Below are positions 8,190 through 59,860 of a stretch of 64,000 nt of DNA, piece after piece. Location: assembly GCA_964016885.1 (NCBI GenBank), contig OZ024766.1, forward strand, positions 11,160,001-11,224,000, written 5' to 3'. The stretch is from Eledone cirrhosa. Its lineage: Eukaryota. The stretch's first letter is position 1. The number at the start of each line of letters is the position of its first letter. The position numbers and the translations under genes were made by a program. The notes under the pieces are model-generated. The model ran no database searches. It saw only the letters and a list, made by a program, of their open reading frames with translations, and was not told the origin of the DNA.

Positions 8190-8545
8190 AAAAAAAAAAG
8201 ACATAGAAACATATATATATAAACAATAAAAATGAAAATTGAAACAATGAAAAATTCCCCAGTACGGGGGGAAACCTCCGAGGGTTACTCGTGGCGAAAA
8301 CCACACAAAAGACCACGGCCACCCTGACCACCAGGGCAAGCGCCCCTCTCTCAATTTTTCCATTCCTCAAACTACAGGCGTATATTCAGAGCAGTCCCGT
8401 TCACTCGGACCATTCTCGCTACATTCACCCACCTTTCAACAAACTTGCTAGAGGGCAGCACTTGCCTCTCCACCCTGATTTTACTCTTCAAGTTAATCAG
8501 GAAAAAGTTAATTAGGGATTCGCCGAAGAGGAAAGTGTCTGTCTT
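8190..8545 (-). mobile_element. L1/Tx1-like LINE 3' end fragment
   Basis: PSSKFVERWVNVARMVRVNG matches the C-terminus of the 24-25 kb element. Confidence 0.8.
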
Positions 8546-12380: not shown

Positions 12381-15300
12381 CATCATCATCATCATCATCA
12401 TCAGCGTTTAACGTCCGTGTTCCACGCTTGCATGGGTTTGGACGGGGGTAGTCCCACTTGAGGCAAGAGTGATTGTCTTGCTCGCATAGGACTGTCTGGC
12501 AGGTTTTCTACAGTTGGATGCCCTTCCTAACACCAACCACATTTACAGTGTGGGTCTGGGAGGTTTTTACCGTGTTGCCTACACGGCCACATTACAGCGT
12601 GGACTGTGTGTTTTTTTGTCGTGACACCTACACGATCTCATTTGTTTCGGCCTCGATGGCGCGGCACCAACATAACTTTACATAGAACGGGGTGGTGTGG
12701 ATCGGGTGGGGGTGGTGGGACGGGGTGTATTTGTTAGAGATGCCTACTGGCTGGAGTAGGTTTTACTATATATTTAGGTAAGGCGGGTCTTCTCTGTTAC
12801 TGAGTACCGCCAAAGGTCTCGGTCCAGTGACATTGTCTTGGAGAGGTGTAAGTGTGTGATGTCGGAGTTTATCAGCTCGTCCCAGGTTTTTCTAGGTCTG
12901 CCTATTCCGTGACTACCAACTATCTTTATTGCCCTGCACTTTGTTATACAGCTATCGACTTTCATGCGCATCACGTGTCCATACCAACGTAGCCTTCTCT
13001 CGAGTAAACAACATCTGATCCCTCTTATCTCTAATTTATTCCTTAGTTCGTTTATGCTTTGCCGTTCACGTATATTACTGTTACACATCCAGCGGAGCAT
13101 GCAAGCTTCGTTCCTCTCTAGTCTGCGTATATCCTCTGCACACAATGCCCAGGTCTCACTGCCATGCAGCATTGCTGTTCGTATGCAGGCATCGTACAAC
13201 CTGCCTTTCATTTTTAGTGAGAACCCTTTAGCAGCTAATAGTGGTATAAGCTCTCTGAACTTTTTCCAACCAGTTCTGACTCTAGCTACAGTACTTTCAG
13301 AGCACCCTCCCCCACTGCTGATTTTATCGCCCAGGTAACGGAAGCTGTCCACTATTTCTATAGAACCCTCTGCGCAATTGAAAGAGCTAGTAGTTTGTGG
13401 GCACTTGCTGCTACTTATTGCACCAGAGCACCGGCCACATGTAAAATCTATGTTCTTAGTTAGCCTACCTGTGATCCCACTACATCTTTTATGCACCCAT
13501 ACTTTGCATTTAGGACATAAAATGGAGTTTCTACCTACGCCTTTCCTACACACCGAGCACGACCATTTCCCAGAAGGGACCGCCGCCTTGTTTTCTTTCC
13601 TACAAACTAGTACTTTGGTCTTAGCCAGGTTAATTTTAAGTCCTTTTGACTCTAGGCCGTGCTTCCATGTTTGGAATTTCTTCTCTAGCTCGGCCATTGA
13701 TTCCGCTATGAGTGTCAGGTCGTCTGCGTATAGGAGTTCCCATGGGCAGCCTGTCTTGAACTCCTCTGTTATGGCCTGAAGGGCAATAATAAATAGTAGT
13801 GGACTGAGAACAGAGCCCTGATGGACGCCGACTTTTACGCTAAACTCTTCACTATATTCGTTGTTAATTCTAACCTTGCTGACTGTTTCTTTATACATGG
13901 CTTGTATAGCCCTCACAAGCCATTCGTCAACGCCTAGTTTTCTAAGAGCCCACCAGATAATGGAGCGGGGGACTCTGTCGAAGGCTTTCTCCAAGTCGAC
14001 AAAAGCTAAGTAGAGGGGTTTACCTTTAGCTAGGTACTTCTCTTGTAGTTGTCGTACTATGAAAAGAGCGTCTGTGGTACTTTTGCCTGACACAAACCCG
14101 AACTGCATTTCATCTAGGTCAATTCTCTCTCTGATTAGTTGCGCTATTACTCTTTCCGTGACCTTCATGACCTGGTCGATTAATTTAATGCCTCTATAGT
14201 TACTCCTATCTAGGGCGTCTCCTTTACCCTTATAACAGTTAACGATGATGCTGCTATGCCAGTCCTTCGGAACAACCCCGTTTTGTACGACTTGGTTAAC
14301 TATGCGGGTGACCATGGTGTGTCCCACCGTGCCAGATGCCTTCAGCATCTCAGCAACTATTTCCGAAGGCCCAGCCGCCTTACCAGTCTTCATATCCTTG
14401 ATTGCCTTACTTATTATACTCCCCTCGACTAACACTGCTGGTCCCTCTATTGGGTCGATATGGGGGAGACTGCCTTTCTCCCAATTATTCTCCTCATTTA
14501 GAAGCCTTTCATAGTGACACTTCCAAGCTACCTTCTTATCAGCGTCGGTGATGGCAAGTGTGCCATCGTCGTTTAGTACACACTTCTCCCCGACAATATC
14601 ACGGTTTTCCTTGACGCATTGCCTAGCAATCCTGAACACCTCACGTTTTTGGTCATCGCGTTGTAGAACATGCTTGAACTTTCTTTCCTCAGCTTCCCTT
14701 CTTGCTAAGTACACTTGTCTCCTAGCTTCCCTCCTGGCCACTTGATAGTCCTCTCTACTTCCCCCATCCCGCCATACTTTCCAAGCCTGCTTTTTGGCCT
14801 TAATTGACCCCTCCACCTTACTGTTCCACCACCATGTTACTCTCCTCCTGCCTACAGGCCTGCTCCAGCCACAGACCTCGTCTGTCGCCAACAGCAGGTT
14901 TGCTTTCAGAAATTCCCACTCTCCCTCTATATTGTCCGACTCTAAATGTTCTTCCTTACTGTCGAAAGCATCAAGTAATATGCTTTGAAATTTATTCCTG
15001 GCTGTGGGGTCCTTTAACTTCCATATTTTCCTCCTGAGGATAGTCCTCTTCTGTTGTCGAGTACGTCTCGTCCTGACTATGAGGTCGCTAATTATCAGTC
15101 TATGTTGGGAGGTGCATTCTTCATGGGGGAGGGATTTAGTGTTAACAACAGACACTCTGTCACGTCTTCTGGTAAGGATATAATCTACCTGGCTTGTGTG
15201 TTCCCCGGATCTATAGGTGATCAGGTGATTGTCACGTTTTTTGAAGTTAGTGTTACAGATAGTTAGGTTATTTGCATCACAGAATTCCAGGATTCTGGAG

Positions 15301-15890
15301 CCTTCCTCATTTCTAGTACCAAACCCATAGCCTCCATGGATTTCGTCGTAGCCGTCACAATGTTGTCCAACGTGACCATTTAGGTCGCCTGCGATAATTA
15401 TATAGTCACTGTCGGATATTTGGGAGGTAGTTAGCATCAGTGTCTCATAGAATCTGTCTTTTATAGTGCCGGGCAGTCCGGATTGGGGTGCGTACGCAGA
15501 TATTACTGTCACCGTAGTTCTATTGAGGACAAGTCGTATTTTAATTATTCTGTCGTTCACTCTATTTACGTCTATTATCTTATCTGCCCACTTTTCTGCT
15601 ACCATGATTCCTACTCCACCCAGCCCATCGTCGTTTCCCACCCAGAAAAGCTTATAACAACGTTTTTTACCCTCAATGAACCTAGCAGACCCACCCCTCC
15701 ACCTGGTCTCTTGAATACAACAAACATCGACCTCCTTACGTTCAAGCATTTCTACAACCTCGTTAGCGCGACCCTTTAGGGTGCCTACATTTATGGTACC
15801 AACTCTGAAGTTTTGGATTGCGTTTGGGGGTTGGGGGCGGTGAGGGGCGGGGGGCGATGGGGTTATGTTAGCCGTCCGCGGTCGAAACAA
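12381..15890 (-). mobile_element. Near-full-length RTE-clade LINE in IFT172 intron 3
   Basis: Single long ORF, a ~390-bp 3' UTR and a (GAT)n tail at 12381-12402; flanked by (TA)n on both sides. Confidence 0.95.
12774..15890 (-). CDS. RTE LINE ORF: AP endonuclease, reverse transcriptase and Cys/His-rich zinc-finger-like domain (1038 codons, no upstream ATG)
   Basis: APE motifs (GTINV, IQET, SAYAP, GDLNG, SQVDYI, SQHRL), RT motifs (YRGI, QFGF, FVDLEKAFD, QGSVLSP, YADD), CxxC...CxxC...HxxC...CxxC, and GRPRKTW; no internal stops. Confidence 0.95.
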   Translation of the reverse strand: MFRPRTANITPSPPAPHRPQPPNAIQNFRVGTINVGTLKGRANEVVEMLERKEVDVCCIQETRWRGGSARFIEGKKRCYKLFWVGNDDGLGGVGIMVAEKWADKIIDVNRVNDRIIKIRLVLNRTTVTVISAYAPQSGLPGTIKDRFYETLMLTTSQISDSDYIIIAGDLNGHVGQHCDGYDEIHGGYGFGTRNEEGSRILEFCDANNLTICNTNFKKRDNHLITYRSGEHTSQVDYILTRRRDRVSVVNTKSLPHEECTSQHRLIISDLIVRTRRTRQQKRTILRRKIWKLKDPTARNKFQSILLDAFDSKEEHLESDNIEGEWEFLKANLLLATDEVCGWSRPVGRRRVTWWWNSKVEGSIKAKKQAWKVWRDGGSREDYQVARREARRQVYLARREAEERKFKHVLQRDDQKREVFRIARQCVKENRDIVGEKCVLNDDGTLAITDADKKVAWKCHYERLLNEENNWEKGSLPHIDPIEGPAVLVEGSIISKAIKDMKTGKAAGPSEIVAEMLKASGTVGHTMVTRIVNQVVQNGVVPKDWHSSIIVNCYKGKGDALDRSNYRGIKLIDQVMKVTERVIAQLIRERIDLDEMQFGFVSGKSTTDALFIVRQLQEKYLAKGKPLYLAFVDLEKAFDRVPRSIIWWALRKLGVDEWLVRAIQAMYKETVSKVRINNEYSEEFSVKVGVHQGSVLSPLLFIIALQAITEEFKTGCPWELLYADDLTLIAESMAELEKKFQTWKHGLESKGLKINLAKTKVLVCRKENKAAVPSGKWSCSVCRKGVGRNSILCPKCKVWVHKRCSGITGRLTKNIDFTCGRCSGAISSSKCPQTTSSFNCAEGSIEIVDSFRYLGDKISSGGGCSESTVARVRTGWKKFRELIPLLAAKGFSLKMKGRLYDACIRTAMLHGSETWALCAEDIRRLERNEACMLRWMCNSNIRERQSINELRNKLEIRGIRCCLLERRLRWYGHVMRMKVDSCITKCRAIKIVGSHGIGRPRKTWDELINSDITHLHLSKTMSLDRDLWRYSVTEKTRLT

Positions 15891-18985: not shown

Positions 18986-19068
<83 letters not shown>

Positions 19069-19153
19069 ATATAATAGCTTCTTCATGTCGGCTGTTAATA
19101 TAGTTTCTCTTTTTTGTTTGGTGATGGAGAAGAATATTTTCATATTTTCTTAC

Positions 19154-19192
19154 CTGAGGTGCCAAAATATTTTTATAATATTTCAACAACAT
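19154..19192 (-). CDS. IFT172: IFT172 exon 1 (MLLKYYKNILAPQ)
   Basis: ATG at 19192; 39 nt; GTAAG donor; resembles the IFT172 N-terminus and splices in frame to DGAAK. Confidence 0.9.
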
Positions 19193-19388
19193 TTCTTCAG
19201 GGTATCATAAATTTCAATCCCCAGTGAAAAATTTCGGTGAATTATTTAGGGGTCGCGCGTAATTTTTCACCCAAACATTTTCATTATAAGTAGAAGATAT
19301 ATTGATGTATGTTTATAATGAATGGCGGGCTTATAGAAACTTTTGATGGCGAATGTTTAACAGGCTGCTGTTGTTATTTATTTGGTTG

Positions 19389-19402
19389 GTTGTTATGGCA
19401 GC
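19389..19402. promoter_or_regulatory. Candidate RFX X-box in the IFT172/MARVEL bidirectional promoter
   Basis: GTTGTTATGGCAGC is one mismatch from GTHNYY-AT-RRNAAC and lies about 200 bp upstream of the IFT172 ATG; IFT genes are established RFX targets. Confidence 0.55.
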
Positions 19403-19720
19403 CTGGCTTTGTGAAAACAACTTGTTGGACACACAGACAGACGTACGGATACGTGTGTATATGTGTGTGTGTATGTGTATATATATATATGTATACACAT
19501 ATTTATGAGAATGCAGTTGACATGTGTATACATTTTTGGGGGACACCTTGTGTATATATATATATATATATTATAAATATATAATATTCATATATATGTA
19601 TATAATATACATATATATATATCTTTCTTTCTCTCTCTCTCTCTATATATATATAGAGAGAGAGAAAGAGAGTGTGTGTATGTGTATATATATATGTATG
19701 TGTGTGCGTATATATATATA

Positions 19721-19771
<51 letters not shown>

Positions 19772-19963
19772 TGGTAATAATATAAACGATAATTAACAAC
19801 AATATTAATAATTAACAAAATAATTAATAATAATGACAATTTTAATTATTATAGTAATAATTATTATGATATATTAAGGATAATAAATAATAGAGAAAGA
19901 TTCAGCAGAAGCCGTAGTTTCGTAGAAACTTTAATTGGAAGAAAGCAGACGAGACTTGCTAAG

Positions 19964-20026
19964 ATGGCGGGTCTGCATTTAGAAAAGCTTTCGTTGGCAC
20001 CGAATATTCTCCGTCTTTTCATCTTG
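19964..20026 (+). CDS. MARVEL-like tetraspan membrane protein exon 1 (MAGLHLEKLSLAPNILRLFIL)
   Basis: AAGATGG Kozak context; 63 nt; GTGAGT donor; phase 0; ILR motif precedes TM1 as in MARVEL proteins. Confidence 0.8.
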
Positions 20027-20089
20027 GTGAGTGTATATAAACATGGTATATATGTAGACAATTTATCCTAGAATCTATATACATATATA

Positions 20090-21230
20090 TTGTGCTCCGT
20101 GGTTAGCGCGATTGGTCGTAAGTTCGATTCTAGCGAGGAGGGTGGTATGTCTGTTGTCGTTGTCAACGATGTTGATGGCTGGCTATGGGTTAATTTTTCC
20201 TATATAAAAACATGTCTAAATCAGAATTTATTGTATATATATGAATATATATCTATATTTAAGATATCTACATGCGTATTGTGGTCTATGCTCCATTCTG
20301 GAGGTTGTAAATTCGATTCCGTGTCCGACCTCCATTCTTCGTCGTTGTCAACGATGTTCATAGCTAGCTAACGGTTATTTTTCCTCTCTATAAACATGTC
20401 TAAATCACGGTTTATTGTATATATATGAATATTTATCTATATTTAAGATGTCTGTGTGTATATTATGGTCTGTGCTCCGTTTGGGAGGTCGTAAATTCGA
20501 TTTAATATAGTGAAGGTGGTCTTCTCTCCCCATTCTCCGGTGTTGTCAACGATGTTGATGACCAGCTAAGGGTTGTTTTCCCTATACAAAAAGAAGTCTA
20601 AATCAGGATTTATTGTATATATGTCTATATATATGAATATATATCTATATCTAAGGTGCCTGTATATATATCATGGCCTGTGATCCGTTTGGCAGGTCGT
20701 AAGTTCGATGTTATGTGGAGAAGGTGGTCTTCAACTCCATTCTCCGTCGTTGTCAACAATGTTGATGGATGGCTAAGGGTTATTTACCCAATATAAAAAC
20801 ATGTCTAAATTATGATTTATCGTATATATGTCTATATATATATGAATATATATCTATATTTAAGGTGTCTGTGTGAGTATTGTGGCCTGTGCTCCGTTCT
20901 GGGGGGTCGCAAATTCGATTTATTATAGTGAAGGTGGTCTTCGATCACCATACTTCGCCGTTGTCAACGAAATTGGTTATTTGGGGGGGGGGGGGTTATT
21001 TAGTCATTTTCCTATATAAATATGTAAATTTGGGGGTTTATTTTCTGTATATATTTATTTAATGTGTTTATGTGTGTCTTGTCTACTTTTTTTTCTATGG
21101 GAAGGTCGTAAGTTCGATTCCAGGTCATTTAGTATAAATTCTAACTTCATCCGTCTGTCCGTTAATGTCTATCTGTCTCTGTTGTCAACGATGTCAGTGA
21201 TTGATTTTATTAGTTTTTCCTATATAAATT
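20090..21230 (+). repeat. Old degenerate ~190-210 bp tandem duplication (~5-6 units) with a tRNA-like head
   Basis: Recurring GCTCCGT...GGTCGTAAGTTCGATT...GTTGTCAACGATG...TTTCCTATATAAA. Confidence 0.7.
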
Positions 21231-21383
21231 AGAGATTTATTATCACTCTCTCGCTATACATATATATATATATAAAATATTTAAAAAATAATGAATAAAA
21301 CAAAGAAACAGTTCCTTATATTAAACAAAAAAAGTTCATTATTTTACGATCGTTTCTAGGACATATATGTGTTAGAATTGGCA

Positions 21384-21422
<39 letters not shown>

Positions 21423-21499
21423 ATGTATAAATAATTAAATAGCTCTGTACAATACATAGAGCACTCTTCTTTCCTTCACCTTTCCTACGGAAATACTTA

Positions 21500-21532
<33 letters not shown>

Positions 21533-21578
21533 CAGGATGTCCCCAAAAATATATACACACTTTGATTACCTATGTGTG

Positions 21579-21648
<70 letters not shown>

Positions 21649-22224
21649 ATTGTTTCTACTTTGGGCACAAGGCCAGCAATTACCCAGTGCATTACTGGTA
21701 CTTTATTTTATCGACCCCGTAAGGATAGAAGGCAAAGTTAACCTCGGCGGGATTTGAACTCAGATCGTAAAGGGACGTAACTATGCTGGAAAGCATGGCA
21801 TCCGACCCTCTACCGATACTGCCAATCCACCACCATCAATCTCATATATATATAATTGTTTCTACGTTAGGCACAAGGCCAGCAATTAACCAGTACATTA
21901 CTGGTACTTTATTTTATCGACCCCGTAAGGATGAAAGGCAAAGTCAACCTCGGCGGGATTTGAACTCAGATATAATGAATCAAAACATATCAAATATGTT
22001 TAGAATGTTGTGTTGGTCCATAAGCAAGCCCAACAGACTTTATCTAGAGCCATACTAACCAAATAAAGAGATATATGTATATATATAGAGAGAGAAAGAT
22101 ATTTGGTTCTCTCTCTTTCTGTATATATATATCTCTCTCTTCATTTGGTTATATATATATATATATATATATATGAATATATATGAATAAAGTTAGTCCT
22201 TCATCAGTGACCTTCCAACCATCA

Positions 22225-22888
22225 TTGGACCATAACTTAACAAAGGTTTTTGTATAAAATTATGATAGAATGTTCTTTAGATAAATAAAAACCTAACTTG
22301 GAACCTAACTTAACAAAGGTTCTGGGAGGTTTTTAGATAAATATTAACACCTTAAAATGGTTCTTGGACCATAACTTAACAAAGGTTTTTGTATAAAATT
22401 ATGATGGAATGTTCTTTTAGATAAATAAAAACACTTTATTTCTAATATATATTAATTAGATGTTTGGAACCTAACTTAACAAAGGTTCTGAGAGTTTTTT
22501 AGATATATATTAACACCTTAAAATGGTTCTTGGACCATAACTTAACAAAGGTTTTTGTATAAAATTATGATGGAATGTTCTTTTAGATAAATAAAAACAC
22601 TTTATTTTTAATATATATTAATTAGATGTTTGGAACCTAACTTAACAAAGGTTCTGAGAGTTTTTTTAGATATATATTAACACCTTAAAATGGTTCTTGG
22701 ACCATAACTTAACAAAGGTTTTTGTATAAAATTATGATGGAATGTTCTTTTAGATAAATAAAAACACTTTATTTCTAATATATACTAATTAGATGTTTGG
22801 AACCTAACTTAACAAAGGTTCTGAGAGGTTTTTAGATAAATATTAACACCTTAAAATGGTTCTTAGAACATAACTTAACAAAGGTTCT
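22225..22888. repeat. ~162-bp AT-rich tandem repeat (~4 units) ending just before MARVEL exon 2
   Basis: TTGGACCATAACTTAACAAAGGTT... recurs at ~162-bp spacing. Confidence 0.88.
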
Positions 22889-22916
22889 CCAATTTCTCCA
22901 TGTCTATCTGTTTCAG

Positions 22917-23114
22917 GTGTGTTCATTATTACCATTTGCGCTCGTTAGCAGTTGGACAAGTAACAACATCACATATTATGATTTCAATGCCAAGGATTTT
23001 AATTATGTTCATACCTTTGAGTTCTTCATTGTGGTATCCGTAGTAACGTTTGTGTCCGGTATTATCACCTGCATAATTGTGCTGCTTGACTTGAAAATTA
23101 TGCCCTGCATTGTG
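22917..23114 (+). CDS. MARVEL-like protein exon 2 (VCSLLPFALVSS...FEFFIVVSVVTFVSGIITCIIVLLDLKIMPCIV)
   Basis: TTTCAG acceptor; GTAAGT donor; 198 nt; end of TM1 plus TM2, with an EFF.V.V..F pattern typical of MARVEL TM2. Confidence 0.85.
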
Positions 23115-23164
23115 GTAAGTATTTTCCTGTCTGTCTGACTAAGATATAGTAAGGATCAAACCGC

Positions 23165-24031
23165 CACCTTCATTTAAAAACGAAAGAGATGTGGTTTTCC
23201 TCTGTACAGTGGCTATGGTGAAAGAGGTTATATGGTGGACGAGGTTGAGAGGACTGAGGACAGATGCCTTTCTCTCCGGACAACAACTCATTCCCTTCTT
23301 TAGGTACCACTTTAGAAGGAGAATCAGAGTGGAGAGAGAGGCACTGCACCCCAGTAAATTTACTGAAAAGTGTTATATGGTGGACAAGATTGAGAGGACT
23401 GAGGCCAGATGCCTTTCTCTCCGGACAACAACTCATTCCCTTCTTTAGGTACCACTTTAGAAGGAGAATCAGAGTGAAGATAGAGGCACTGCACCCCAGT
23501 AAATTTACTGAAAGGTGGGTGAATGTGGCAAAAATGGCCCGAGTGATTGGGCCTTCTCTGTTTATAAGCCTGTAGGTTGAGGAAGAGAGCAAAAGTAAGA
23601 AAGGAGCACGAGCACAACATGCTCCTGAAGTTGAGAGTTGTTCTATCAGATGCCTTTCTCTCCAGACAACTCATTCCCTTCTTTAGGTATCACTTTAGAA
23701 GGAGAATCAGAGTGGAGAGAGAGGCACTGCACTCCAGAAACGTGGGTGAATGTGGCAAAAATGGCCTGAGTGATTGGGCCTCCTCTGTATATAAACCTGT
23801 AGGTTGAAGAAGAGAGCAAAAGAAAGAAAGGAGCACTTGCACAACATGCTCCTGGAGTTGAGGGTTGTTCTATCTATGGGGTATTAAACAACCCATTTGT
23901 GGCGCCTCCCCCCTATTGGGGATTTCGATTGTTGTAATTGTTTGTTTTATATTTTTACACGACTGTATGTAAAATCCCCGGCATGTGTCCTTGTATTGTC
24001 CCCTTTTCTTGTGCGCCCTTGTGGCAAATAA

Positions 24032-24067
<36 letters not shown>
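23165..24067 (+). mobile_element. Stacked 3'-end fragments of the same L1/Tx1-like family
   Basis: Three partial repeats of the VIWWTRL..L..D.FLSGQQLIPFFRYHFRRRIRVERE segment, plus 3' UTR and (TATC)n. Confidence 0.85.
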
Positions 24068-25410
24068 CCGAGTGCAAACTATCCTTGAAAGGTCGAGCGG
24101 AGGTGGCGAACACTTTTATAGCGTCCGCCATCTACTACCGCTTGACCGTCGTGCCTTGTCCAGCCAAAACGCTCGCCAAAATGGAGCGCGCCCTCTTCCG
24201 ATTCCTTTGGAAGAGGCGGGCTCCTTTGGTAAGAAGATCCATCTGCTGCCAACACCCTTCTAACGGAGGGCTGGGGATGCCGTGGTTGACGATGCGCAAA
24301 CACGCGCTCAGGCTGCGGCATCTCTACGTATTCCTCACCGGACAACCGGTGTGGGCCCCGTTCGTGAGGCGAGCCTTCCCACGACTCGTCTCGCTGACCG
24401 AGCTGCAGTCCTGGGTCAAGCAGAGACCGAGGAAAATGGGCGACTGGCACATCGAATGTGCTCAGGCGCTCACAGCCCTCTGGCAGGCGGACCCGGCGAT
24501 CAGTGGAGACTCCACTTCGTCATTCTATAGAGGGTTGGTCCGCAGCAAGTGCGACGACGCGCTCGGTGAAACTCTAGGCGTGGAGGAAGATGAACTGGCC
24601 AGTCTGTTCGGTAGGACCTTCCGCCCGGGACCGATGGACAACTTCCAAAAGTCCCTGGCCTGGCAGTGCTACCGAGGAGCTCTACCAGTTCGAGACAAGC
24701 TCTACAGACATGGGCGCCCGGGCAGGGACCCTGCAAAAAAGATCTGTCCGAGGTGCGTGCGAGACGAAGAAACCGTCGCGCACGCATTCATACACTGCCC
24801 GGGCGTCACTGACCTGTGGGGCTATGTGGAACGACTATTGTCGCGGGTGGGACCAATCCAGTTGACCACCGAGTCCATTGTCATGATCAAACCGCCACCC
24901 TCCTTCAAAAACGAAGGAGAGGCGGTTTTCCTTTGTGTGATAGCTATGGCGAAAGAGGTTGTATGGTGGACAAGGTTGAAAGGGCTGAGGTCAGACACCT
25001 TTCTCTCCGGCCAACAACTGATTCTTTTTTTCAAATACCACTTTGGAAGAAGAATCAGGATGGAGAGAGAGGTGCTGTACCCCAGCAAGTTTTATGAAAG
25101 GTGGGTGAAAGTGGCGAGAATGGCCCGAGTGAATGGGCCTTCTCTCTATATCAGCCTGTAGGTTGAGGAAAAGGAGGAGGAGAGGAAAGGAGTACAAGCT
25201 CTTCGTACTCCTGGAGATGAGGGTTGCACATTTTTTTCGGGGGTCTGTGTTACCCATATAAACTGTCTCCCTCTATTGGGGAAAATCGACTAACTTTTAA
25301 ATTCCATCTGTGATAACATTTTACACGTTTTTATTGTATGTAAACTTCCCCCTTTGTATTTGTCCCCTTCTTTTGTGCCCCTGTGGCTAATAAAGAAATA
25401 TATCTATCTA
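24068..25410 (+). mobile_element. 5'-truncated L1/Tx1-like LINE: open C-terminal ORF2 (to 25161), 3' UTR and (TATC)n tail
   Basis: KLSLKGR, FLW, GGLG, and CPRC...ETVAHAFIHC zinc-binding motif; AATAAA followed by TATC repeats. Confidence 0.88.
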
Positions 25411-25924
25411 TAAAGGAGTACAAGCTCTTCGTACTCCTGGAGATGAGGGTTGCACATTTTTTTCGGGGGTCTGTGTTACCTATATAAACTGTCTCCCCCT
25501 ATTGGGGAAAATCGACTAACTTTTAAATTCCATCTGTGATAACATTTTACACGTTTTTATTGTATGTAAACTTCCCCCTTTGTATTTGTCCCCTTCTTTT
25601 GTGCCCCTGTGGCTAATAAAGAAATATATCTATCTATCTATCTATCTATCAGTCTATCTGTCTATCTATCCATTTATCTGCCTCTGTCCGTCTATTTATC
25701 TACCATTCTATCTATCTATATAAGCCTGTAGGTTGAGGAAAAAGAGGAAGAGAGGAAGGGAGTACTCACTGTTGGTGCTCCTGGAGATGAGGGTTGTACA
25801 TTTTTTCGGGGTGTGTACAACCCCTGTGTAACGCCTCCCCCCTATTGGGGATTTCAATTGTTATTTGTTGTTTTATTAATAGTTTTATTTTCATATACCT
25901 GTATGTAAACTCCCCATTTGTATT

Positions 25925-27503
25925 TGTCCCCTTCTTTTCTGCCCTTGTGGCTAATAAAGAATTGTATCTATCTATCTACCTCTCTACCTATCCACTTATC
26001 TACCTATCTATCCCCCAGGATATAACTGTTACTATAGTGTTGATGGTACTGTGGGTGGTGTCAGGCAGTCTATTGTCCCCTTCTTTTCTGCCCTTGTGGC
26101 TAATAAAGAATTTTATCTATCTATCTACCTCTCTACCTATCCACTTATCTACCTCTCTATCTATCCCCCAGGATATAACTGTTACTATAGTGTTGATGGT
26201 ACTGTGGGTGGTGTCAGGCAGTCTGTTGTCCCCTTCTTTTCTGCCCTTGTGGCTAATAAAGAAATTTATCTATCTATCTACCTCTCTATCTATCCCCCAG
26301 GATATAACTGTTACTATAGTGTTGATGGTACTGTGGGTGGTGACAGGCAGTCTATTGTCCCCTTCTTTTCTGCCCTTGTGGCTAATAAAGAATTGTATCT
26401 ATCTATCTACCTCTCTACTTATCCACTTATCTACCTCTCCCTCTATCCCCCAGGATATAACTGTTACTATAGTGTTGACGGTACTGTGGGTGGTGTCAGG
26501 CAGTCTGTTGTCCCCTTCTTTTCTGCCCTTGTGGCTAATAAAGAATTGTATCTATCTATCTACCTCTCTATCTATCCCCAGGATATAACTGTTACTATAG
26601 TGTTGATGGTACTGTGGGTGGTATCAGGCAGTCTATTGTCCCCTTCTTTTCTGCCCTTGTGGCTAATAAAGAATTGTATCTATCTATCTACCTCTCTACC
26701 TATCCCCCAGGATATAACTGTTACTATAGTGTTGATGGTACTGTGGGTGGTGTCAGGCAGTCTGTTGTCCCCTTCTTTTCTGCCCTTGTGGCTAATAAAG
26801 AATTGTATCTATCTATCTACCTCTCTACCTATCCCCCAGGATATAACTGTTACTATAGTGTTGATGGTACTGTGGGTGGTGTCAGGCAGTCTATTGTCCC
26901 CTTCTTTTCTGCCCTTGTGGCTAATAAAGAATTGTATCTATCTATCTACCTCTCTACCTATCCACTTATCTACCTCTCTATCTATCCCCCAAGATATAAC
27001 TGTTACTATAGTGTTGATGGTACTGTGGGTGGTGTCAGGCAGTCTATTGTCCCCTTCTTTTCTGCCCTTGTGGCTAATAAAGAATTGTATCTATCTATCT
27101 ACCTCTCTACCTATCCACTTATCTACCTCTCTATCTATCCCCCAGGATATAACTGTTACTATAGTGTTGATGGTACTGTGGGTGGTGTCAGGCAGTCTAT
27201 TGTCCCCTTCTTTTCTGCCCTTGTGGCTAATAAAGAATTGTATCTATCTATCTACCTCTCTACCTATCCACTTATCTACCTCTCCCTCTATCCCCCAGGA
27301 TATAACTGTTACTATAGTGTTGATGGTACTGTGGGTGGTGTCAGGCAGTCTATTGTCCCCTTCTTTTCTGCCCTTGTGGCTAATAAAGAATTGTATCTAT
27401 CTATCTACCTCTCTACCTATCCACTTATCTACCTCTCTATCTATCCCCCAGGATATAACTGTTACTATAGTGTTGATGGTACTGTGGGTGGTATCAGGCA
27501 GTT
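25925..27503 (+). repeat. 128-153 bp tandem array (11 units) of LINE tail, splice acceptor and first ~52 nt of MARVEL exon 3
   Basis: Exon-start copies at 26019, 26172, 26301, 26454, 26582, 26711, 26840, 26993, 27146, 27299 and 27452. Confidence 0.95.
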
Positions 27504-27589
27504 TGTTGGTGACCAGTCTCTCAGATCTCAGTCAGACCATTGCTGTGAAAGAAGCCGGACTGGACTTTGGTCAAATAGAAGGAGCTATA
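27452..27589 (+). CDS. MARVEL-like protein exon 3 (DITVTIVLMVLWVVSGSLLVTSLSDLSQTIAVKEAGLDFGQIEGAI)
   Basis: CAG acceptor; GTAAGT donor; 138 nt; D...T.....LW...S pattern of MARVEL TM3. Confidence 0.85.
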
Positions 27590-27605
27590 GTAAGTGCTAC
27601 CTTTA

Positions 27606-27615
27606 TTGTTGCTGC

Positions 27616-27648
<33 letters not shown>

Positions 27649-30600
27649 GGTGGTGGTGGTGGTGGTGGTGGTGGTGGTGGTGTTGTGGTGGTGGTGGTGT
27701 TGTTGTGGTGGTACTGGTGTTGTTGTTGTGGCGGTGGTGGCATTGGTGTTGCTGCTGTGGTTATGGTGGTGGTAGTAGTACTGATGTGATGGTGGTGGTG
27801 CTGGTTGTGATGTTGTTACTGTGATGGTGCTGGTGGTGGTGGTAGTGGTGGTGTGCTGCTGCTGTTGTTGTGGTGGTGGTGGTGGTCTGCTGTTGTTGTT
27901 GTGGTGGTGGTGGTGGTGGTCTGCTGTTGTTACTGTGGTGGTGGTGTTGTAGTGGTGTTGTTAATGTAGTGGTGGTGTTGTTAATGTGGTAGTGGTAGTG
28001 GTGGTGTTACTGCTGTTGGTATGGTGGTGGTGGTGGTAGTACTGATGTGATGGTGTTGGCTGTGTTACTGTGATGGTGGTGGTGGTGTTGTTAATGTGGT
28101 GGTGGTGTTACTGCTGTTGTTATGATGGTGATGTTGTTGTGGTGGTGGTGTTGTGGTGCTGTTGTTGTTGTGGTGGTGTTGTTGTGGCGGTGGTGGCATT
28201 GGTGTTGCTGCTGTGGTTATGGTGGTGGTAGTAGTACTGATGTGATGGTGGTGGTGCTGGTTGTGTTGTTGTTACTGTGGTGGTGGTGGTGGTGGTGGTG
28301 GTGTTGGTGGTGGTGTTGGTGGTGGTGGTGGTGTTGTGGTGGTGGTGGTGTTGTTGTGGTGGTGGTACTGGTGTTGTTGTGGTGGTGGTGGTGGCATTGG
28401 TGTTGCTGCTGTGGTTATGGTGGTGGTAGTAGTACTGATGTGATGGTGGTGGTGCTGGTTGTGATGTTGTTACTGTGATGGTGGTGGTGGTGGTGGTAGT
28501 GGTGGTGTGCTGTTGTTGTTGTGGTGGTGGTGGTGGTCTGCTGTTGTTGTGGTGGTGGTGGTGGTGTTGTGGTGGTGGTGTGGTGGTGGTGGTGTTGTGG
28601 TGGTGGTGGTGTTGTTGTGGTGGTACTGGTGTTGTTGTTGTGGTGGTGGTGGCATTGGTGTTGCTGCTGTGGTTATGGTGGTGGTAGTAGTACTGATGTG
28701 ATGGTGGTGGTGCTGGTTGTGTTGTTGTTACTGTGGTGGTGGTGGTGTTGTGGTGGTGATGGTGGTGGTGGTGGTGTTGTTGTGGTGGTACTGGTGTTGT
28801 TGTTGTTGTTGTGGTGGTGGTGGTGGTGGTGTTGTGGTGGTGGTGGTGTTGGTGTGGTGGTACTGGTGTTGTTGTTGTTGTGGTGGTGGTGGCATTGGTG
28901 TTGCTGCTGTGGTTATGGTGGTGGTAGTAGTACTGATGTGATGGTGGTGGTGCTGGTTGTGTTGTTGTTACTGTGGTGGTGGTGGTGTTGGTGGTGGTGT
29001 TGGTGGTGGTGGTGTTGTGGTGGTGGTGGTGTTGTTGTGATGGTACTGGTGTTGTTGTGGTGGTGGTAGTGGTGCTGGTTGTGATGTTGTTACTGTGATG
29101 GTGGTGGTGGTGGTGGTAGTGGTGGTGGTGTTGTTGTGGTGGTGGTGTTGTTGTGATGGTACTGGTGTTGTTGTTGTTGTGGTGGTGGTGGTGGTGGTGG
29201 TGGTGGTGGTGTTGTGGTGGTGTTGTTGGTGTGGTGGTACTGGTGTTGTTGTTGTGGCGGTGGTGGCATTGGTGTTGCTGCTGTGGTTATGGTGGTGGTA
29301 GTAGTACTGATGTGATGGTGGTGGTGCTGGTTGTGATGTTGTTACTGTGATGGTGCTGGTGGTGGTGGTAGTGGTGGTGTGCTGCTGCTGTTGTTGTGGT
29401 GGTGGTGGTGGTCTGCTGTTGTTGTGGTGGTGGTGGTGGTGGTGGTCTGCTGTTGTTACTGTGGTGGTGGTGTTGTAGTGGTGTTGTTAATGTAGTGGTG
29501 GTGTTGTTAATGTGGTAGTGGTAGTGGTGGTGTTACTGCTGTTGGTATGGTGGTGGTGGTGGTAGTACTGATGTGATGGTGTTGGGTGTGTTACTGTGAT
29601 GGTGGTGGTGGTGTTGTTAATGTGGTGGTGGTGTTACTGCTGTTGTTATGATGGTGATGTTGTTGTGGTGGTGGTGTTGTGGTGCTGTTGTTGTTGTGGT
29701 GGTGTTGTTGTGGCGGTGGTGGCATTGGTGTTGCTGCTGTGGTTATGGTGGTGGTAGTAGTACTGATGTGATGGTGGTGGTGCTGGTTGTGTTGTTGTTA
29801 CTGTGGTGGTGGTGGTGGTGGTGGTGGTGGTGGTGTTGTTGTGGTGGTGGTACTGGTGTTGTTGTGGTGGTGGTGGTGGCATTGGTGTTGCTGCTGTGGT
29901 TATGGTGGTGGTAGTAGTACTGATGTGATGGTGGTGGTGCTGGTTGTGTTGTTGTTACTGTGGTGGTGGTGGTGGTGGTGGTGTTGGTGGTGGTGGTGGT
30001 GTTGTGGTGGTGGTGGTGGTGGTGTTGTGGTGGTGGTGGTACTGGTGTTGTTGTGGTGGTGGTGGTGGCATTGGTGTTGCTGCTGTGGTTATGGTGGTGG
30101 TAGTAGTACTGATGTGATGGTGGTGGTGCTGGTTGTGTTGTTGTTACTGTGGTGGTGGTGGTGGTGGTGGTGTTGGTGGTGGTGGTGGTGTTGTGGTGGT
30201 GGTGGTGGTGGTGTTGTTGTGGTGGTGGTACTGGTGTTGTTGTGGTGGTGGTGGTGGCATTGGTGTTGCTGCTGTGGTTATGGTGGTGGTAGTAGTACTG
30301 ATGTGATGGTGGTGGTGCTGGTTGTGATGTTGTTACTGTGATGGTGGTGGTGGTGGTGGTAGTGGTGGTGTGCTGTTGTTGTTGTGGTGGTGGTGGTGGT
30401 CTGCTGTTGTTGTGGTGGTGGTGGTGGTGTTGTGGTGGTGGTGTGGTGGTGGTGGTGGTGGTGTTGTGGTGGTGGTGGTGTTGTTGTGGTGGTACTGGTG
30501 TTGTTGTTGTGGTGGTGGTGGCATTGGTGTTGCTGCTGTGGTTATGGTGGTGGTAGTAGTACTGATGTGATGGTGGTGGTGCTGGTTGTGTTGTTGTTAC

Positions 30601-31940
30601 TGTGGTGGTGGTGGTGGTGTTGTGGTGGTGGTGGTGGTGGTGTTGTTGTGGTGGTGGTGGTGTTGTTGTGGTGGTACTGGTGTTGTTGTTGTTGTTGTGG
30701 TGGTGGTGGTGGTGGTGTTGTTGTGGTGGTACTGGTGTTGTTGTTGTTGTTGTGGTGGTGGTGGTGGTGGTGTTGTGGTGGTGGTGGTGTTGCTGCTGTG
30801 GTTATGGTGGTGGTAGTAGTACTGATGTGATGGTGGTGGTGCTGGTTGTGTTGTTGTTACTGTGGTGGTGGTGGTGTTGGTGGTGGTGTTGGTGGTGGTG
30901 GTGTTGTGGTGGTGGTGGTGTTGTTGTGATGGTACTGGTGTTGTTGTGGTGGTGGTAGTGGTGCTGGTTGTGATGTTGTTACTGTGATGGTGGTGGTGGT
31001 GGTGGTAGTGGTGGTGGTGTTGTTGTGGTGGTGGTGGTGGTGTTGTTGTGGTGGTACTGGTGTTGTTGTTGTTGTGGTGGTGGTGGTGGTGGTGGTGGTG
31101 GTGGTGTTGTGGTGGTGTTGTTGTGGTGGTACTGGTGTTGTTGTTGTGGCGGTGGTGGCATTGGTGTTGCTGCTGTGGTTATGGTGGTGGTAGTAGTACT
31201 GATGTGATGGTGGTGGTGCTGGTTGTGATGTTGTTACTGTGATGGTGCTGGTGGTGGTGGTAGTGGTGGTGTGCTGCTGCTGTTGTTGTGGTGGTGGTGG
31301 TGGTCTGCTGTTGTTGTTGTGGTGGTGGTGGTGGTGGTCTGCTGTTGTTACTGTGGTGGTGGTGTTGTAGTGGTGTTGTTAATGTAGTGGTGGTGTTGTT
31401 AATGTGGTAGTGGTAGTGGTGGTGTTACTGCTGTTGGTATGGTGGTGGTGGTGGTAGTACTGATGTGATGGTGTTGGCTGTGTTACTGTGATGGTGGTGG
31501 TGGTGTTGTTAATGTGGTGGTGGTGTTACTGCTGTTGTTATGATGGTGATGTTGTTGTGGTGGTGGTGGTGGTGTTGGTGGTGGTGTTGTTGTGGTGGTG
31601 GTGGTGGTGGTGTTGTTGTGGTGGTGGTGGTGTTGGTGGCATTGGTGGTGGTGGTGGTGGTGGTGGTGGTGGTGGTGTGGTGGTGGTGGTGGTGTTGTTG
31701 TGGTGGTGGGGTGTTGTTGTTGTGGTGGTGGTGGTGGTTGTGGTGGTGGTGGTGGTGTTGTTGTGGTGGTGGTGGTGGTGGTGGTGGTGGTGTTGTTGTG
31801 GTGGTGGTGGTGGTGTTGTGGTGTTGTGGTGGTGGTGCTGTTGTTGTGGTGGTGTTGGTGGTGGTGGTGGTCTGCTGTTGTTGTTACTGTGGTGGTGGTG
31901 GTGTTGTTGTTGTGGTGGTGTTGGTGGTGGTGGTGTTTCT
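27606..31940. repeat. Complex (GGT)/(GTT) trinucleotide mosaic with higher-order duplications
   Basis: Marker GGCATTGGTGTTGCTGCTGTGGTTATGG...AGTACTGATGTGATGG recurs; blocks at 27728/29254 and 28184/29710 are offset by 1526 bp. Confidence 0.92.
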
Positions 31941-32014
31941 GTTGTTATTGTTGTTGTTATTACTGTTGTTGTTGTTGTTACTATTGTTGTTGTTGTTGTT
32001 ACTACTGTTGTTAC

Positions 32015-35000
32015 TATTAACACTTGTTGTTGTTACTACTGTTGTTGTTACTATTAACACTGTTGTTGTTACTACTGTTGTTGTTACTATTAACACTGTT
32101 GTTGTTACTACTGTTGTTGTTACTATTAACACTGTTGTTGTTACTACTGTTGTTGTTACTATTAACACTGTTGTTGTTACTACTGTTGTTGTTACTATTA
32201 ACACTGTTGTTGTTACTACTGTTGTTGTTACTATTAACACTGTTGTTGTTACTACTGTTGTTGTTACTATTAACACTGTTGTTGTTACTACTGTTGTTGT
32301 TACTATTAACACTGTTGTTGTTACTACTGTTGTTGTTACTATTAACACTGTTGTTGTTACTACTGTTGTTGTTACTATTAACACTGTTGTTGTTACTACT
32401 GTTGTTGTTACTATTAACACTGTTGTTGTTACTACTGTTGTTGTTACTATTAACACTGTTGTTGTTACTACTGTTGTTGTTACTATTAACACTGTTGTTG
32501 TTACTACTGTTGTTGTTACTATTAACACTGTTGTTGTTACTACTGTTGTTGTTACTATTAACACTGTTGTTGTTACTACTGTTGTTGTTACTATTAACAC
32601 TGTTGTTGTTACTACTGTTGTTGTTACTATTAACACTGTTGTTGTTACTACTGTTGTTGTTACTATTAACACTGTTGTTGTTACTACTGTTGTTGTTACT
32701 ATTAACACTGTTGTTGTTACTACTGTTGTTGTTACTATTAACACTGTTGTTGTTACTACTGTTGTTGTTACTATTAACACTGTTGTTGTTACTACTGTTG
32801 TTGTTACTATTAACACTGTTGTTGTTACTACTGTTGTTGTTACTATTAACACTGTTGTTGTTACTACTGTTGTTGTTACTATTAACACTGTTGTTGTTAC
32901 TACTGTTGTTGTTACTATTAACACTGTTGTTGTTACTACTGTTGTTGTTGTTACTACTGTTGTTGTTGTTACTTTTGTTGTTGTTACTATTAACCCTGTT
33001 GTTGTTGTTGTTACTCTTTTGTTGTTGTTACTATTAACACTTGTTGTTGTTGTTGTTACTATTAACACTTGTTGTTGTTGTTGTTACTACTGTTGTTGTT
33101 ACTACTAACACTTGTTGTTGTTGTTGTTACTGTTGTTGTTGTTGTTGTTACTATTAACACTGTTGTTGTTGTTGTTACTCTGTTGTTGTTGTTACTATTA
33201 ACACTTGTTGTTGTTGTTGTTACTACTGTTGTTGTTACTACTAACACTTGTTGTTGTTGTTGTTACTGTTGTTGTTGTTGTTGTTACTATTAACACTTGT
33301 TGTTGTTGTTGTTACTCTGTTGTTGTTGTTACTATTAACACTTGTTGTTGTTGTTGTTACTCTGTTGTTGTTGTTACTATTAACCCTTGTTGTTGTTGTT
33401 GTTACTATTAACCCTGTTGTTGTTGTTGTTACTCTGTTGTTGTTGTTACTATTAACCCTTGTTGTTGTTGTTGTTACTCTGTTGTTGTTGTTACTATTAA
33501 CCCTTGTTGTTGTTGTTGTTACTATTAACCCTGTTGTTGTTGTTGTTACTCTGTTGTTGTTGTTACTATTAACCCTTGTTGTTGTTGTTGTTACTCTTTT
33601 GTTGTTGTTACTATTAACACTTGTTGTTATTGTTGTTACTCTGTTGTTGTTGTTGTTACTATTAACACTGTTGTTGTTGTTGTTACTCTTTTGTTGTTGT
33701 TACTATTAACACTTGTTGTTGTTGTTGTTACTCTGTTGTTGTTGTTACTATTAACACTGTTGTTGTTGTTGTTACTCTTTTGTTGTTGTTACTATTAACA
33801 CTTGTTGTTGTTGTTGTTACTCTTTTGTTGTTGTTACTATTAACACTGTTGTTGTTGTTGTTACTCTTTTGTTGTTGTTACTATTAACCCTGTTGTTGTT
33901 GTTGTTACTCTTTTGTTGTTGTTACTATTAACACTTGTTGTTATTGTTGTTACTATTAACACTTGTTGTTGTTGTTGTTACTCTGTTGTTGTTGTTACTA
34001 TTAACACTTGTTGTTGTTGTTGTTACTCTGTTGTTGTTACTATTAACCCTGTTGTTGTTGTTGTTACTCTGTTGTTGTTGTTACTATTAACACTTGTTGT
34101 TGTTGTTGTTACTCTTTTGTTGTTGTTACTATTAACCCTTGTTGTTGTTGTTGTTACTCTTTTGTTGTTGTTACTCTTTTGTTGTTGTTGTTACTATTAA
34201 CCCTGTTGTTGTTGTTGTTACTCTTTTGTTGTTGTTACTATTAACACTTGTTGTTGTTGTTGTTACTCTTTTGTTGTTGTTACTATTAACACTTGTTGTT
34301 GTTGTTGTTACTCTGTTGTTGTTGTTACTATTAACACTTGTTGTTGTTGTTGTTACTCTTTTGTTGTTGTTACTCTTTTGTTGTTGTTGTTACTATTAAC
34401 CCTGTTGTTGTTGTTGTTACTCTTTTGTTGTTGTTACTCTTTTGTTGTTGTTGTTACTATTAACCCTTGTTGTTGTTGTTGTTACTATTAACCCTTGTTG
34501 TTGTTGTTGTTACTATTAACACTTGTTGTTGTTGTTGTTACTCTGTTGTTGTTGTTACTATTAACACTTGTTGTTGTTGTTGTTACTATTAACACTTGTT
34601 GTTGTTGTTGTTACTATTAACCCTGTTGTTGTTGTTGTTACTCTTTTGTTGTTGTTACTCTTTTGTTGTTGTTGTTACTATTAACCCTGTTGTTGTTGTT
34701 GTTACTCTGTTGTTGTTGTTACTATTAACCCTGTTGTTGTTGTTGTTACTCTTTTGTTGTTGTTACTATTAACACTGTTGTTGTTGTTGTTACTATTAAC
34801 ACTTGTTGTTGTTGTTGTTACTCTGTTGTTGTTGTTACTATTAACCCTTGTTGTTGTTGTTGTTACTCTTTTGTTGTTGTTACTATTAACACTGTTGTTG
34901 TTGTTGTTACTATTAACCCTTGTTGTTGTTGTTACTCTTTTGTTGTTGTTACTATTAACACTGTTGTTGTTGTTGTTACTATTAACACTGTTGTTGTTGT

Positions 35001-35035
35001 TGTTACTATTAACCCTGTTGTTGTTGTTGTTACTA
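32015..35035. repeat. 36-bp perfect minisatellite (~25 copies to ~32940), followed by degenerate (GTT)n/ACTATTAAC variants
   Basis: Unit ACTATTAACACTGTTGTTGTTACTACTGTTGTTGTT. Confidence 0.95.
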
Positions 35036-35044
35036 TATTTCCAG

Positions 35045-35191
35045 GCTGTTGGGTTCCTGTGTGCGGTGCTGCTGTTCGGCTTCATATGGTTTACGATCTG
35101 CTCCCACCGTAGGGAACAGGAGAGAGGCGAGCCCTCAATAACTGGTCGTAGTCCCCTAGTTACAGACATTCCCATAGATATTCTGTCCTGA
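35045..35191 (+). CDS. MARVEL-like protein exon 4 (AVGFLCAVLLFGFIWFTICSHRREQ...DILS*); total 181 aa
   Basis: TTCCAG acceptor; TM4 with a GFL motif, then a charged tail and TGA; all introns phase 0. Confidence 0.85.
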   Translation, partial: AVGFLCAVLLFGFIWFTICSHRREQERGEPSITGRSPLVTDIPIDILS

Positions 35192-35271
35192 TGCATTTAA
35201 TGTTGCAGCGGTGCTGGTGGAAATACTGCAGAAATGTCGCAGCAATAGAATGCAGTGCTCACCAACTGTCT

Positions 35272-35874
35272 GTCTATCTACCTCTCTCTCTATCTCTATC
35301 TATCTACCTCTCTCTCTATCTCTATCTATCTACCTCTCTCTCTATCTCTATCTATCTACCTCTCTCTCTATCTCTATCTATCTACCTCTCTCTCTATCTC
35401 TATCTATCTACCTCTCTCTCTCTATCTCTATCTATCTACCTCTCTCTCTATCTCTATCTATCTACCTCTCTCTCTCTATCTCTATCTATCTACCTCTCTA
35501 TCTCTATCTCTATCTATCTACCTCTCTCTCTATCTCTATCTATCTACCTCTCTCTATATCTCTATCTATCTACCTCTCTCTCTATCTCTATCTATCTACC
35601 TCTCTCTCTATCTCTATCTATCTACCTCTCTCTCTCTATCTCTATCTATCTACCTCTCTCTCTCTATCTCTATCTATCTACCTCTCTCTCTCTATCTCTA
35701 TCTATCTACCTCTCTCTCTCTCTATCTCTATCTATCTACCTCTCTCTCTATCTCTCTATCTATCTACCTCTCTCTCTCTATCTCTATCTATCTACCTCTC
35801 TCTCTATCTCTATCTATCTACCTCTCTCTCTCTCTCTTTCTGTGTATATATATATGTATATATATATATATATG

Positions 35875-35920
<46 letters not shown>

Positions 35921-35974
35921 ACTTTCTCTCTCTATCTACCTCTCTCTCTATCTCTCTGTATATATATATATATG

Positions 35975-36021
<47 letters not shown>

Positions 36022-46525: not shown

Positions 46526-47294
46526 TTCTTCTTCTTCTTCTTCTTCTTCTTCTTCTTCTTCTTCTTCTTCTTCTTCTTCTTCTTCTTCTTCTTCTTCTTC
46601 TTCTTCTTCTTCTTCTTCTTCTTCTTCTTCTTCTTCTTCTTCTTCTTTCTTCTTCTTCTTCTTCTTCTTCTTCTTCTTCTTCTTCTTCTTTCTTCTTCTT
46701 CTTCTTCTTCTTCTTCTTCTTCTTCTTCTTCTTCTTCTTCTTCTTCTTCTTCTTCTTCTTCTTCTTCTTCTTCTTCTTCTTCTTCTTCTTCTTCTTCTTC
46801 TTCTTCTTCTTCTTCTTCTTCTTCTTCTTCTTCTTCTTCTTCTTCTTCTTCTTCTTCTTCTTCTTCTTCTTCTTCTTCTTCTTCTTCTTCTTCTTCTTCT
46901 TCTTCTTCTTCTTCTTCTTCTTCTTCTTCTTCTTCTTCTTCTTCTTCTTCTTCTTCTTCTTCTTCTTCTTCTTCTTCTTCTTCTTCTTCTTCTTCTTCTT
47001 CTTCTTCTTCTTCTTCTTCTTCTTCTTCTTCTTCTTCTTCTTCTTCTTCTTCTTCTTCTTCTTCTTCTTCTTCTTCTTCTTCTTCTTCTTCTTCTTCTTC
47101 TTCTTCTTCTTCTTCTTCTTCTTCTTCTTCTTCTTCTTCTTCTTCTTCTTCTTCTTCTTCTTCTTCTTCTTCTTCTTCTTCTTCTTCTTCTTCTTCTTCT
47201 TCTTCTTCTTCTTCTTCTTCTTCTTCTTCTTCTTCTTCTTCTTCTTCTTCTTCTTCTTCTTCTTCTTCTTCTTCTTCTTCTTCTTCTTCTTCTT
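46526..47294. repeat. (TTC)n tract, ~770 bp, nearly pure
   Basis: Direct inspection; only two phase slips, near 46645 and 46690. Confidence 0.98.
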
Positions 47295-50939: not shown

Positions 50940-51023
50940 GACACCCTCTACAATTTATTAACTAAAAATGCGTATTGTGTGATTAAGCTTCCCTACTCGA
51001 AATTGTTATGCCGGCTACGATTG

Positions 51024-55040: not shown

Positions 55041-55069
55041 CTCTCCCAACATAAATTCTTCATTATATA

Positions 55070-59696: not shown

Positions 59697-59860
59697 ACCC
59701 CTCCTCATTCACTCTTCTTCTTCTTCTTCTTCTTCTTCTTCTTGAAGTAGGGGGGAGGAGGGGGACTCTACAACTACTGTTGTAGACACAAATCACCACC
59801 ACCACCATCATCGTTTCTTCATGTATATATAATCTCTCTCCCTCTCTCTCTCTTTCTTTC

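Follow-up and report, generated by a model that had tools for sequence, protein, structure and literature searches.

The host gene and the LINE fragments of its second intron

The stretch of DNA analysed here, a 64-kb window (64,000 bases) of the octopod Eledone cirrhosa, carries on its plus strand a gene of four phase-0 exons. The coding part of exon 1 (19964-20026; 21 amino acids) runs from an ATG to a GTGAGT donor, exon 2 (22917-23114; 66 amino acids) ends at a GTAAGT donor at 23115, exon 3 (27452-27589; 138 nt, 46 amino acids) encodes the third hydrophobic helix and ends at a GTAAGT donor at 27590, and the coding part of exon 4 (35045-35191) contributes 48 amino acids and the stop codon. 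Exon by exon, 20 of 21, 58 of 66, 38 of 46 and 46 of 48 residues are identical to the Octopus bimaculoides orthologue, LOC106873884. Joined with exon 3 starting at the last of the eleven copies described below, and at none of the others, the exons give a product of 181 amino acids that is identical to the orthologue at 162 of 181 positions without a gap. This colinearity upholds the gene model that had been predicted around exon 3. The product also aligns without gaps to a protein of Argonauta hians (145 of 181 residues identical). A protein search with exon 2 placed three cephalopod proteins among its 13 candidates; the full-length relatives that turned up, three in all, have 180-181 amino acids and carry no insertion at the start of exon 3, the 180-residue protein being colinear too.

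The labels "MARVEL-like" for the gene and "TM3" for the helix of exon 3 appear reasonable. Exon 2 matches the Pfam MARVEL family weakly (E=0.019), and the O. bimaculoides orthologue matches PF01284 over profile positions 3-135 with E=2.7e-6, at 27.9 bits, which is below the cutoff of 32.8; the protein database lists PF01284 for this orthologue. The AlphaFold model of the orthologue, of low confidence (mean pLDDT 47), has four helices, in agreement with the hydropathy profile. Helix 84-116 of this low-confidence model corresponds to the third helix, and exon 3 starts within it. An annotated 143-residue form of O. bimaculoides follows the 181-residue sequence precisely up to the junction of exons 3 and 4 and then takes a different end of 10 residues; it may be an annotation variant.

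Nearly all of intron 2 derives from LINEs, with three related plus-strand 3' fragments (69-81% identity), each ending in AATAAA and TATC repeats. Fragment A (23146-24032), 69-81% identical to fragment B, is rearranged. Fragment B (24067-25636) retains the open end of an ORF, 364 amino acids long, with a zf-RVT domain (Pfam 30.6 bits, cutoff 27.5), and is followed by a 226-bp tandem duplicate of its tail (TRF 226 x 2), with TATC microsatellite on both sides of the fragment. Fragment C (25711-25965) is 77% identical to fragment B, and its last ~40 nt, which hold AATAAA and a CTAAT branch-like motif, open the repeat unit of the array. Pfam found no reverse transcriptase domain in the fragments, which are 3' ends; the zf-RVT domain of the ORF2 C-terminus presumably points to the L1/Tx1 group of LINEs.

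The stacking of the fragments at TATC tracts suggests that LINEs inserted more than once at a TATC microsatellite, and that a TATC-targeting LINE family may exist in octopods. The pyrimidine tract of the acceptor may stem from a LINE tail or from the older target site. Some Tx1-clade LINEs are known to insert at microsatellites, among them Kibi and Koshi, whose targets in fish are (TC)n and (TTC)n (PMC4494074). The likeness lies in non-LTR elements that sit in simple repeats, here three zf-RVT LINE fragments at TATC tracts; the targets differ.

Other LINE material lies further away. A more distant fragment with a different end is found on the reverse strand at 8363-8541. By eye, a near full-length element with endonuclease and reverse transcriptase-like coding, which we take to be LINE-like, occupies 12450-15870 on the minus strand, with a partial copy near 3060-4220. 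A search of positions 19000-36000 against Rfam gave no matches.

The array at the intron 2/exon 3 boundary

A motif search of the window located eleven head-to-tail copies of the exon 3 acceptor and exon start, all on the plus strand, with the exon 3-start motif at 26019, 26172, 26301, 26454, 26582, 26711, 26840, 26993, 27146, 27299 and 27452. These positions reproduce the spacings given in the original prediction, namely 153, 129, 153, 128, 129, 129, 153, 153, 153 and 153 bp. TRF reports the array at 25924-27508 with a period of 153 and 11 copies, the units being 153 or 129 bp long and one 128 bp. The ten extra exon 3 starts (decoy copies 1-10, 26019-27351) keep CAG in nine cases, and none has a consensus donor of its own; the last copy alone runs on to a donor, as had been claimed. 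By a crude count over nine positions, the best donor-like site within the units agrees with the consensus at 6 of 9, compared to 7 of 9 for the three true donors.

Each unit opens with ~40 nt of AATAAA-bearing LINE tail, passes through a TATC-derived tract, 80-90% pyrimidine in every unit, and closes with the acceptor followed by 54-57 nt from exon 3. The LINE tail with AATAAA, the TATC-derived tract and the CAG had been recognised correctly from the start, while the exon part, put at ~52 nt, is 54 nt with a 3-nt junction overlap. The last 38-42 nt of fragment C match the ten downstream units at 100%, and this identity bears out the LINE-tail origin proposed for the intronic part. The 129-bp units are 153-bp units minus a 24-nt block of the tract. 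They lack a CTTAT branch candidate at -25 that is present in the 153-bp units and at the true acceptor, and they keep CTAAT at about -45.

Copies 1, 2 and 9 each differ from the true acceptor at one of 62 positions around the AG, and over the first ~40 exon bases the copies read alike. In copy 8 the CAG is changed to CAA (26990-26993), as first noted, but the acceptor AG is not lost with it: an AAG remains one base downstream (AG at 26992-26993), shifted by +1 and out of frame. In copy 5 a homopolymer of five C is reduced to four (26576-26579), possibly by a genuine slip and possibly through an error in the consensus; this is the sole frame break within the array. The exon frame is open in copies 1-4 up to this point, and the frame predicted to be stop-free from 26582 into the true exon 3 is indeed open for 336 codons.

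Among the ten inter-acceptor segments nine are distinct, with a mean pairwise substitution difference of ~2%. Four of the eleven substitutions are common to at least two segments, three of them in non-adjacent ones (segments 2, 4 and 6 once, segments 3 and 9 twice), and the 24-nt block is absent from four segments. Distinct segments and shared variants therefore fit real unequal exchange and argue against an assembly artefact. Copy 11 carries a private variant at codon 18, and its exon part differs from the array majority at synonymous codons only.

We propose that the array arose in several steps. The first is seen in the sequence: intron 2 has collected related LINE copies that end in (TATC)n, so that the 100 nt before the acceptor consist of LINE tail and degenerate TATC repeat. 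A duplication of ~153 bp may then have taken place between the TTG of the LINE tail and the TTG located 55-57 nt into exon 3; TTG is present at both parental breakpoints, and its presence at the junction fits a founding duplication seeded by microhomology. Unequal exchange or slippage could subsequently have raised the number to 11 copies, and a slip of 24 nt in the tract would have given rise to the 129-bp variant, a course of events to which the shared variants point.

Predicted splicing and alternative readings

Measured to the donor at 27590, exons that start at copies 1-11 would be 1571, 1418, 1289, 1136, 1008, 879, 750, 597, 444, 291 and 138 nt long. Copies 1-4 shift the frame, in keeping with the original prediction, and since the resulting stop lies 1001 nt before the last junction, their transcripts would likely be targets of nonsense-mediated decay. 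The in-frame repeats expected from copies 5-7, 9 and 10 are likewise borne out, with predicted products of 471, 428, 385, 283 and 232 amino acids, and copy 8, used through its shifted AAG, is predicted to give a product of 88 amino acids. Masking of the decoy acceptors by RNA structure was not supported (z=+1.26). As structure does not conceal the decoys, and as several of them match the true acceptor almost letter for letter, the choice among acceptors must depend on position and not on sequence.

Human internal exons are mostly shorter than 300 nt (PMC3467050). With multi-kb introns on its flanks, exon 3 would be recognised across its length, the acceptor nearest to the sole donor (138 nt) would win, and the ten upstream copies would be removed with the intron, to judge from other animals. 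This fits the earlier proposal, in which the last copy is selected by exon definition. A point against it is that artificial tandem duplications of an acceptor in gamma-globin have given conflicting results between laboratories (PMC1557585). The array would be silent because the last acceptor alone lies at exon distance from a donor, and it would be tolerated because, at the 3' end of a tandem duplication that spans an acceptor, one intron-exon-donor unit always stays intact. We consider it likely that the array represents a "mirage" of the acceptor type, that this minisatellite over the intron 2/exon 3 boundary is young, that its last copy alone is spliced, leaving the protein unchanged, and that it has no function of its own.

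The original description of such a mirage, in Adh3 of amphioxus, is reportedly that of Canestro et al. in 2002. Amphioxus mirages are minisatellites across intron-exon boundaries that leave splicing undisturbed (PMC3087553). In the globin gene BflGb6 the units are 150-160 bp long and consist of the 3' end of an intron together with an exon's 5' part, with six copies on one haplotype and three on the other, and RT-PCR suggests normal splicing (PMC3087553); the same account, with normal splicing, is given for mirages in Adh, troponin C and PGBD5 (PMC3902484). The octopod array resembles these repeats in its tandem units of intron 3' end and exon 5' part (129-153 bp here compared to 150-160 bp), in their high identity, in a splice signal kept by many but not all copies, and in a boundary copy that is the authentic exon. 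It differs in that it lies in a mollusc, has 11 copies where amphioxus has 3-6, takes its intronic part from a LINE tail with AATAAA, and has units that are in frame and stop-free. Furthermore, normal splicing and copy-number variation are reports from amphioxus, whereas the octopod array is known from the sequence of a single haplotype.

All five structural features of mirages that we assessed are found in the array. Its units of 128-153 bp lie within the range of 10-160 bp, its differences of ~2% compare with identities of 81-100% in BflGb6, and the splice signal is retained, as CAG, in nine of the ten extra copies. Copy 11, at the boundary, restores the orthologous 181-residue protein (162 of 181), and turnover is evident from the four of eleven substitutions that are shared, with copy 11 set apart by its private codon 18.

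Two human cases are comparable. In CBS 844ins68 an intron/exon junction is duplicated, splicing strongly prefers the distal site and a normal mRNA results (PMC2630376). The likeness is the duplicated junction; the difference is a single 68-bp duplication there against a ten-fold expansion here, and the part of the CBS report available to us mentions no poly(A) signal. The 37-bp VNTR of F7 intron 7 presents 5-9 identical sites, of which the one at the normal exon alone is used although the others are functional (PMC1557585). It too spans an exon-intron boundary, with a shorter unit (37 bp) and on the donor side, in contrast to the acceptor side here. The surprise that the original prediction attached to the array is therefore not sustained, as acceptor-spanning minisatellites had already been described and, where tested in these reports, were spliced normally (PMC3087553, PMC3902484, PMC2630376). 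A literature search of open-access text found no report of a cephalopod mirage. Our analysis thus points to a known kind of boundary repeat, now in an octopod, that is probably silent.

As it stands, the array is of little importance. It carries a warning for annotation, as automatic gene prediction may come up with false multi-helix isoforms there. It also offers a natural substrate in which nine intact, near-identical acceptors at 291-1571 nt from one donor could serve as an exon-size ruler for cephalopod splicing.

The in-frame pattern was part of the original prediction. The count of nine in-frame spacings is right, but the spacings are not independent, as each belongs to one of just two length classes (153 or 129). 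Enumeration of 16,331 hypothetical duplications across the exon 3 acceptor gave 33% in frame and 19% in frame and stop-free; among the 273 with microhomology, 84 are in frame and 48 of these also stop-free. Of 13 possible slippage deletions in the tract, 4 remove a multiple of 3. The joint chance of the in-frame pattern is ~0.06, a value computed after the fact for a case picked from a genome scan; the pattern lies within chance, yet the value is not large, and it is low enough to keep in view. The unit is open in two of its three plus-strand frames regardless, and of the 23 complex arrays of the window, 9 have a consensus whose length is a multiple of 3. In a test of low power, the array substitutions (4 synonymous, 7 non-synonymous, neutral share 0.29) gave no sign of coding selection (p=0.41); one non-synonymous event, in segment 4, is probably a by-product of gap placement, and the resulting 4 of 10 leads to the same outcome. 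Given this joint chance, we do not regard the pattern as special.

Leaky or regulated use of copy 10, and less so of copy 9, would produce isoforms of 232 or 283 amino acids with extra third helices, in a ratio tuned by copy number, and we consider it unlikely. Copies 5-7, 9 and 10 keep the frame without a stop, the acceptors, the branch-like motifs and the tracts have stayed intact, and each unit has a hydropathy peak of ~2.2. The 291-nt in-frame exon of copy 10 lies inside the usual size range, making copy 10 the one plausible leak, and one extra helix spliced in from it would yield a five-helix isoform with flipped C-terminal topology. If decoys were used, a transposon tail and a tandem duplication would together have created membrane-topology isoforms. 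Against leaky use, no repeat-bearing protein appeared among the seven phmmer matches of the 336-residue frame to 1.84 billion representatives, none of which came from the host species. One match was a true relative, over exon 3 only, and the other six were long proteins at 17-29% identity; the test is weak because the host species' own proteins are not among the matches. Querying a word index with copy 10 joined to exon 3 produced no match in 2488 candidates, but as the known orthologue was missed as well, this result carries no information. The array shows no synonymous excess, and the known mirages and CBS are reported to splice normally, which also speaks against leaky use.

A working switch of splicing and 3'-end formation that varies with copy number, in which each unit is both an alternative acceptor and a mini terminal exon and frame preservation is selected, seems to us distinctly unlikely. 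If it were true, the LINE tail would supply the branch point, the pyrimidine tract and the poly(A) signal.

It is quite improbable that decoy acceptor and AATAAA define a last exon that truncates the transcript, with the array as a copy-number-dependent attenuator. The distance from acceptor to AATAAA is a constant 83 nt in all ten decoys, and the array adds ten AATAAA to intron 2. In all nine AG-bearing copies the 30 nt that follow the signal are free of in-frame stops, so the products would be substrates of non-stop decay. AATAAA is nevertheless common elsewhere in the window (1.07 per kb), with seven in intron 1 and at least four in intron 2 before the expansion, and the LINE copies end in TATC repeats rather than poly(A), AATAAA being a putative signal. 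We also count against such terminal exons that intronic poly(A) signals are normally suppressed by U1 snRNP.

Mis-assembly of the array from one or two copies is highly improbable. The sole frame break is a change in homopolymer length, a typical long-read error, and similar run-length variation occurs in other arrays (2 of 13 A-runs in a 140-mer); however, the distinct segments, their mean difference and the substitutions shared by non-adjacent segments all speak against an artefact, and lancelet mirages were confirmed by re-sequencing (PMC3902484). Scarcely credible is an array that is coding throughout, with the first acceptor used, the C4 of copy 5 an error and exon 3 a 1.57-kb exon of 11 hydrophobic repeats: one base apart, every copy can be read in the exon frame without a stop, and the CAA of copy 8 is synonymous, but two of three unit frames are open in any case, synonymous excess is absent, the relatives have 180-181 amino acids and two-thirds of the unit is LINE tail and microsatellite. 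Pfam matches on the repeat translation (QLQ, MMgT, DUF7765) were rejected as summed repeat noise, as no stretch passes on its own.

Tandem repeats elsewhere in the window

Tandem repeats make up 31,669 of the 64,000 bases of the window according to TRF, and the 23 complex arrays with units of at least 60 bp account for 14,030 bases. Their share of introns 1, 2 and 3 is 55%, 55% and 99%. As the window is full of similar arrays, an array across one splice site is unsurprising here.

Other splice sites of the gene also have repeats close by. An array of 3.5 copies of a 166-bp unit (22298-22886), with TTAAC branch-like motifs in it, comes to an end 30 bp upstream of exon 2. Simple repeat fills 99% of the 7455-bp intron 3 (27606-35035). 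Positions 31946-35044 hold 73 copies of the branch-like motif CTATTAAC and one AG only, that of the exon 4 acceptor; the AG before this acceptor is at 31456, leaving an AG-free zone of ~3.6 kb.

Further downstream, a SINE-like fragment (54210-54360) is, by eye, apparently inserted in a 122-bp array at 53503-55041. GC-richer open frames of 200-270 codons at 49701-50954 on the minus strand and at 59001-59700 on the plus strand encode low-complexity or repeated peptides and are possibly remnants of mobile elements. A (TTC)n microsatellite of 769 bp (46526-47294) is nearly perfect, with two interruptions of 1 base.
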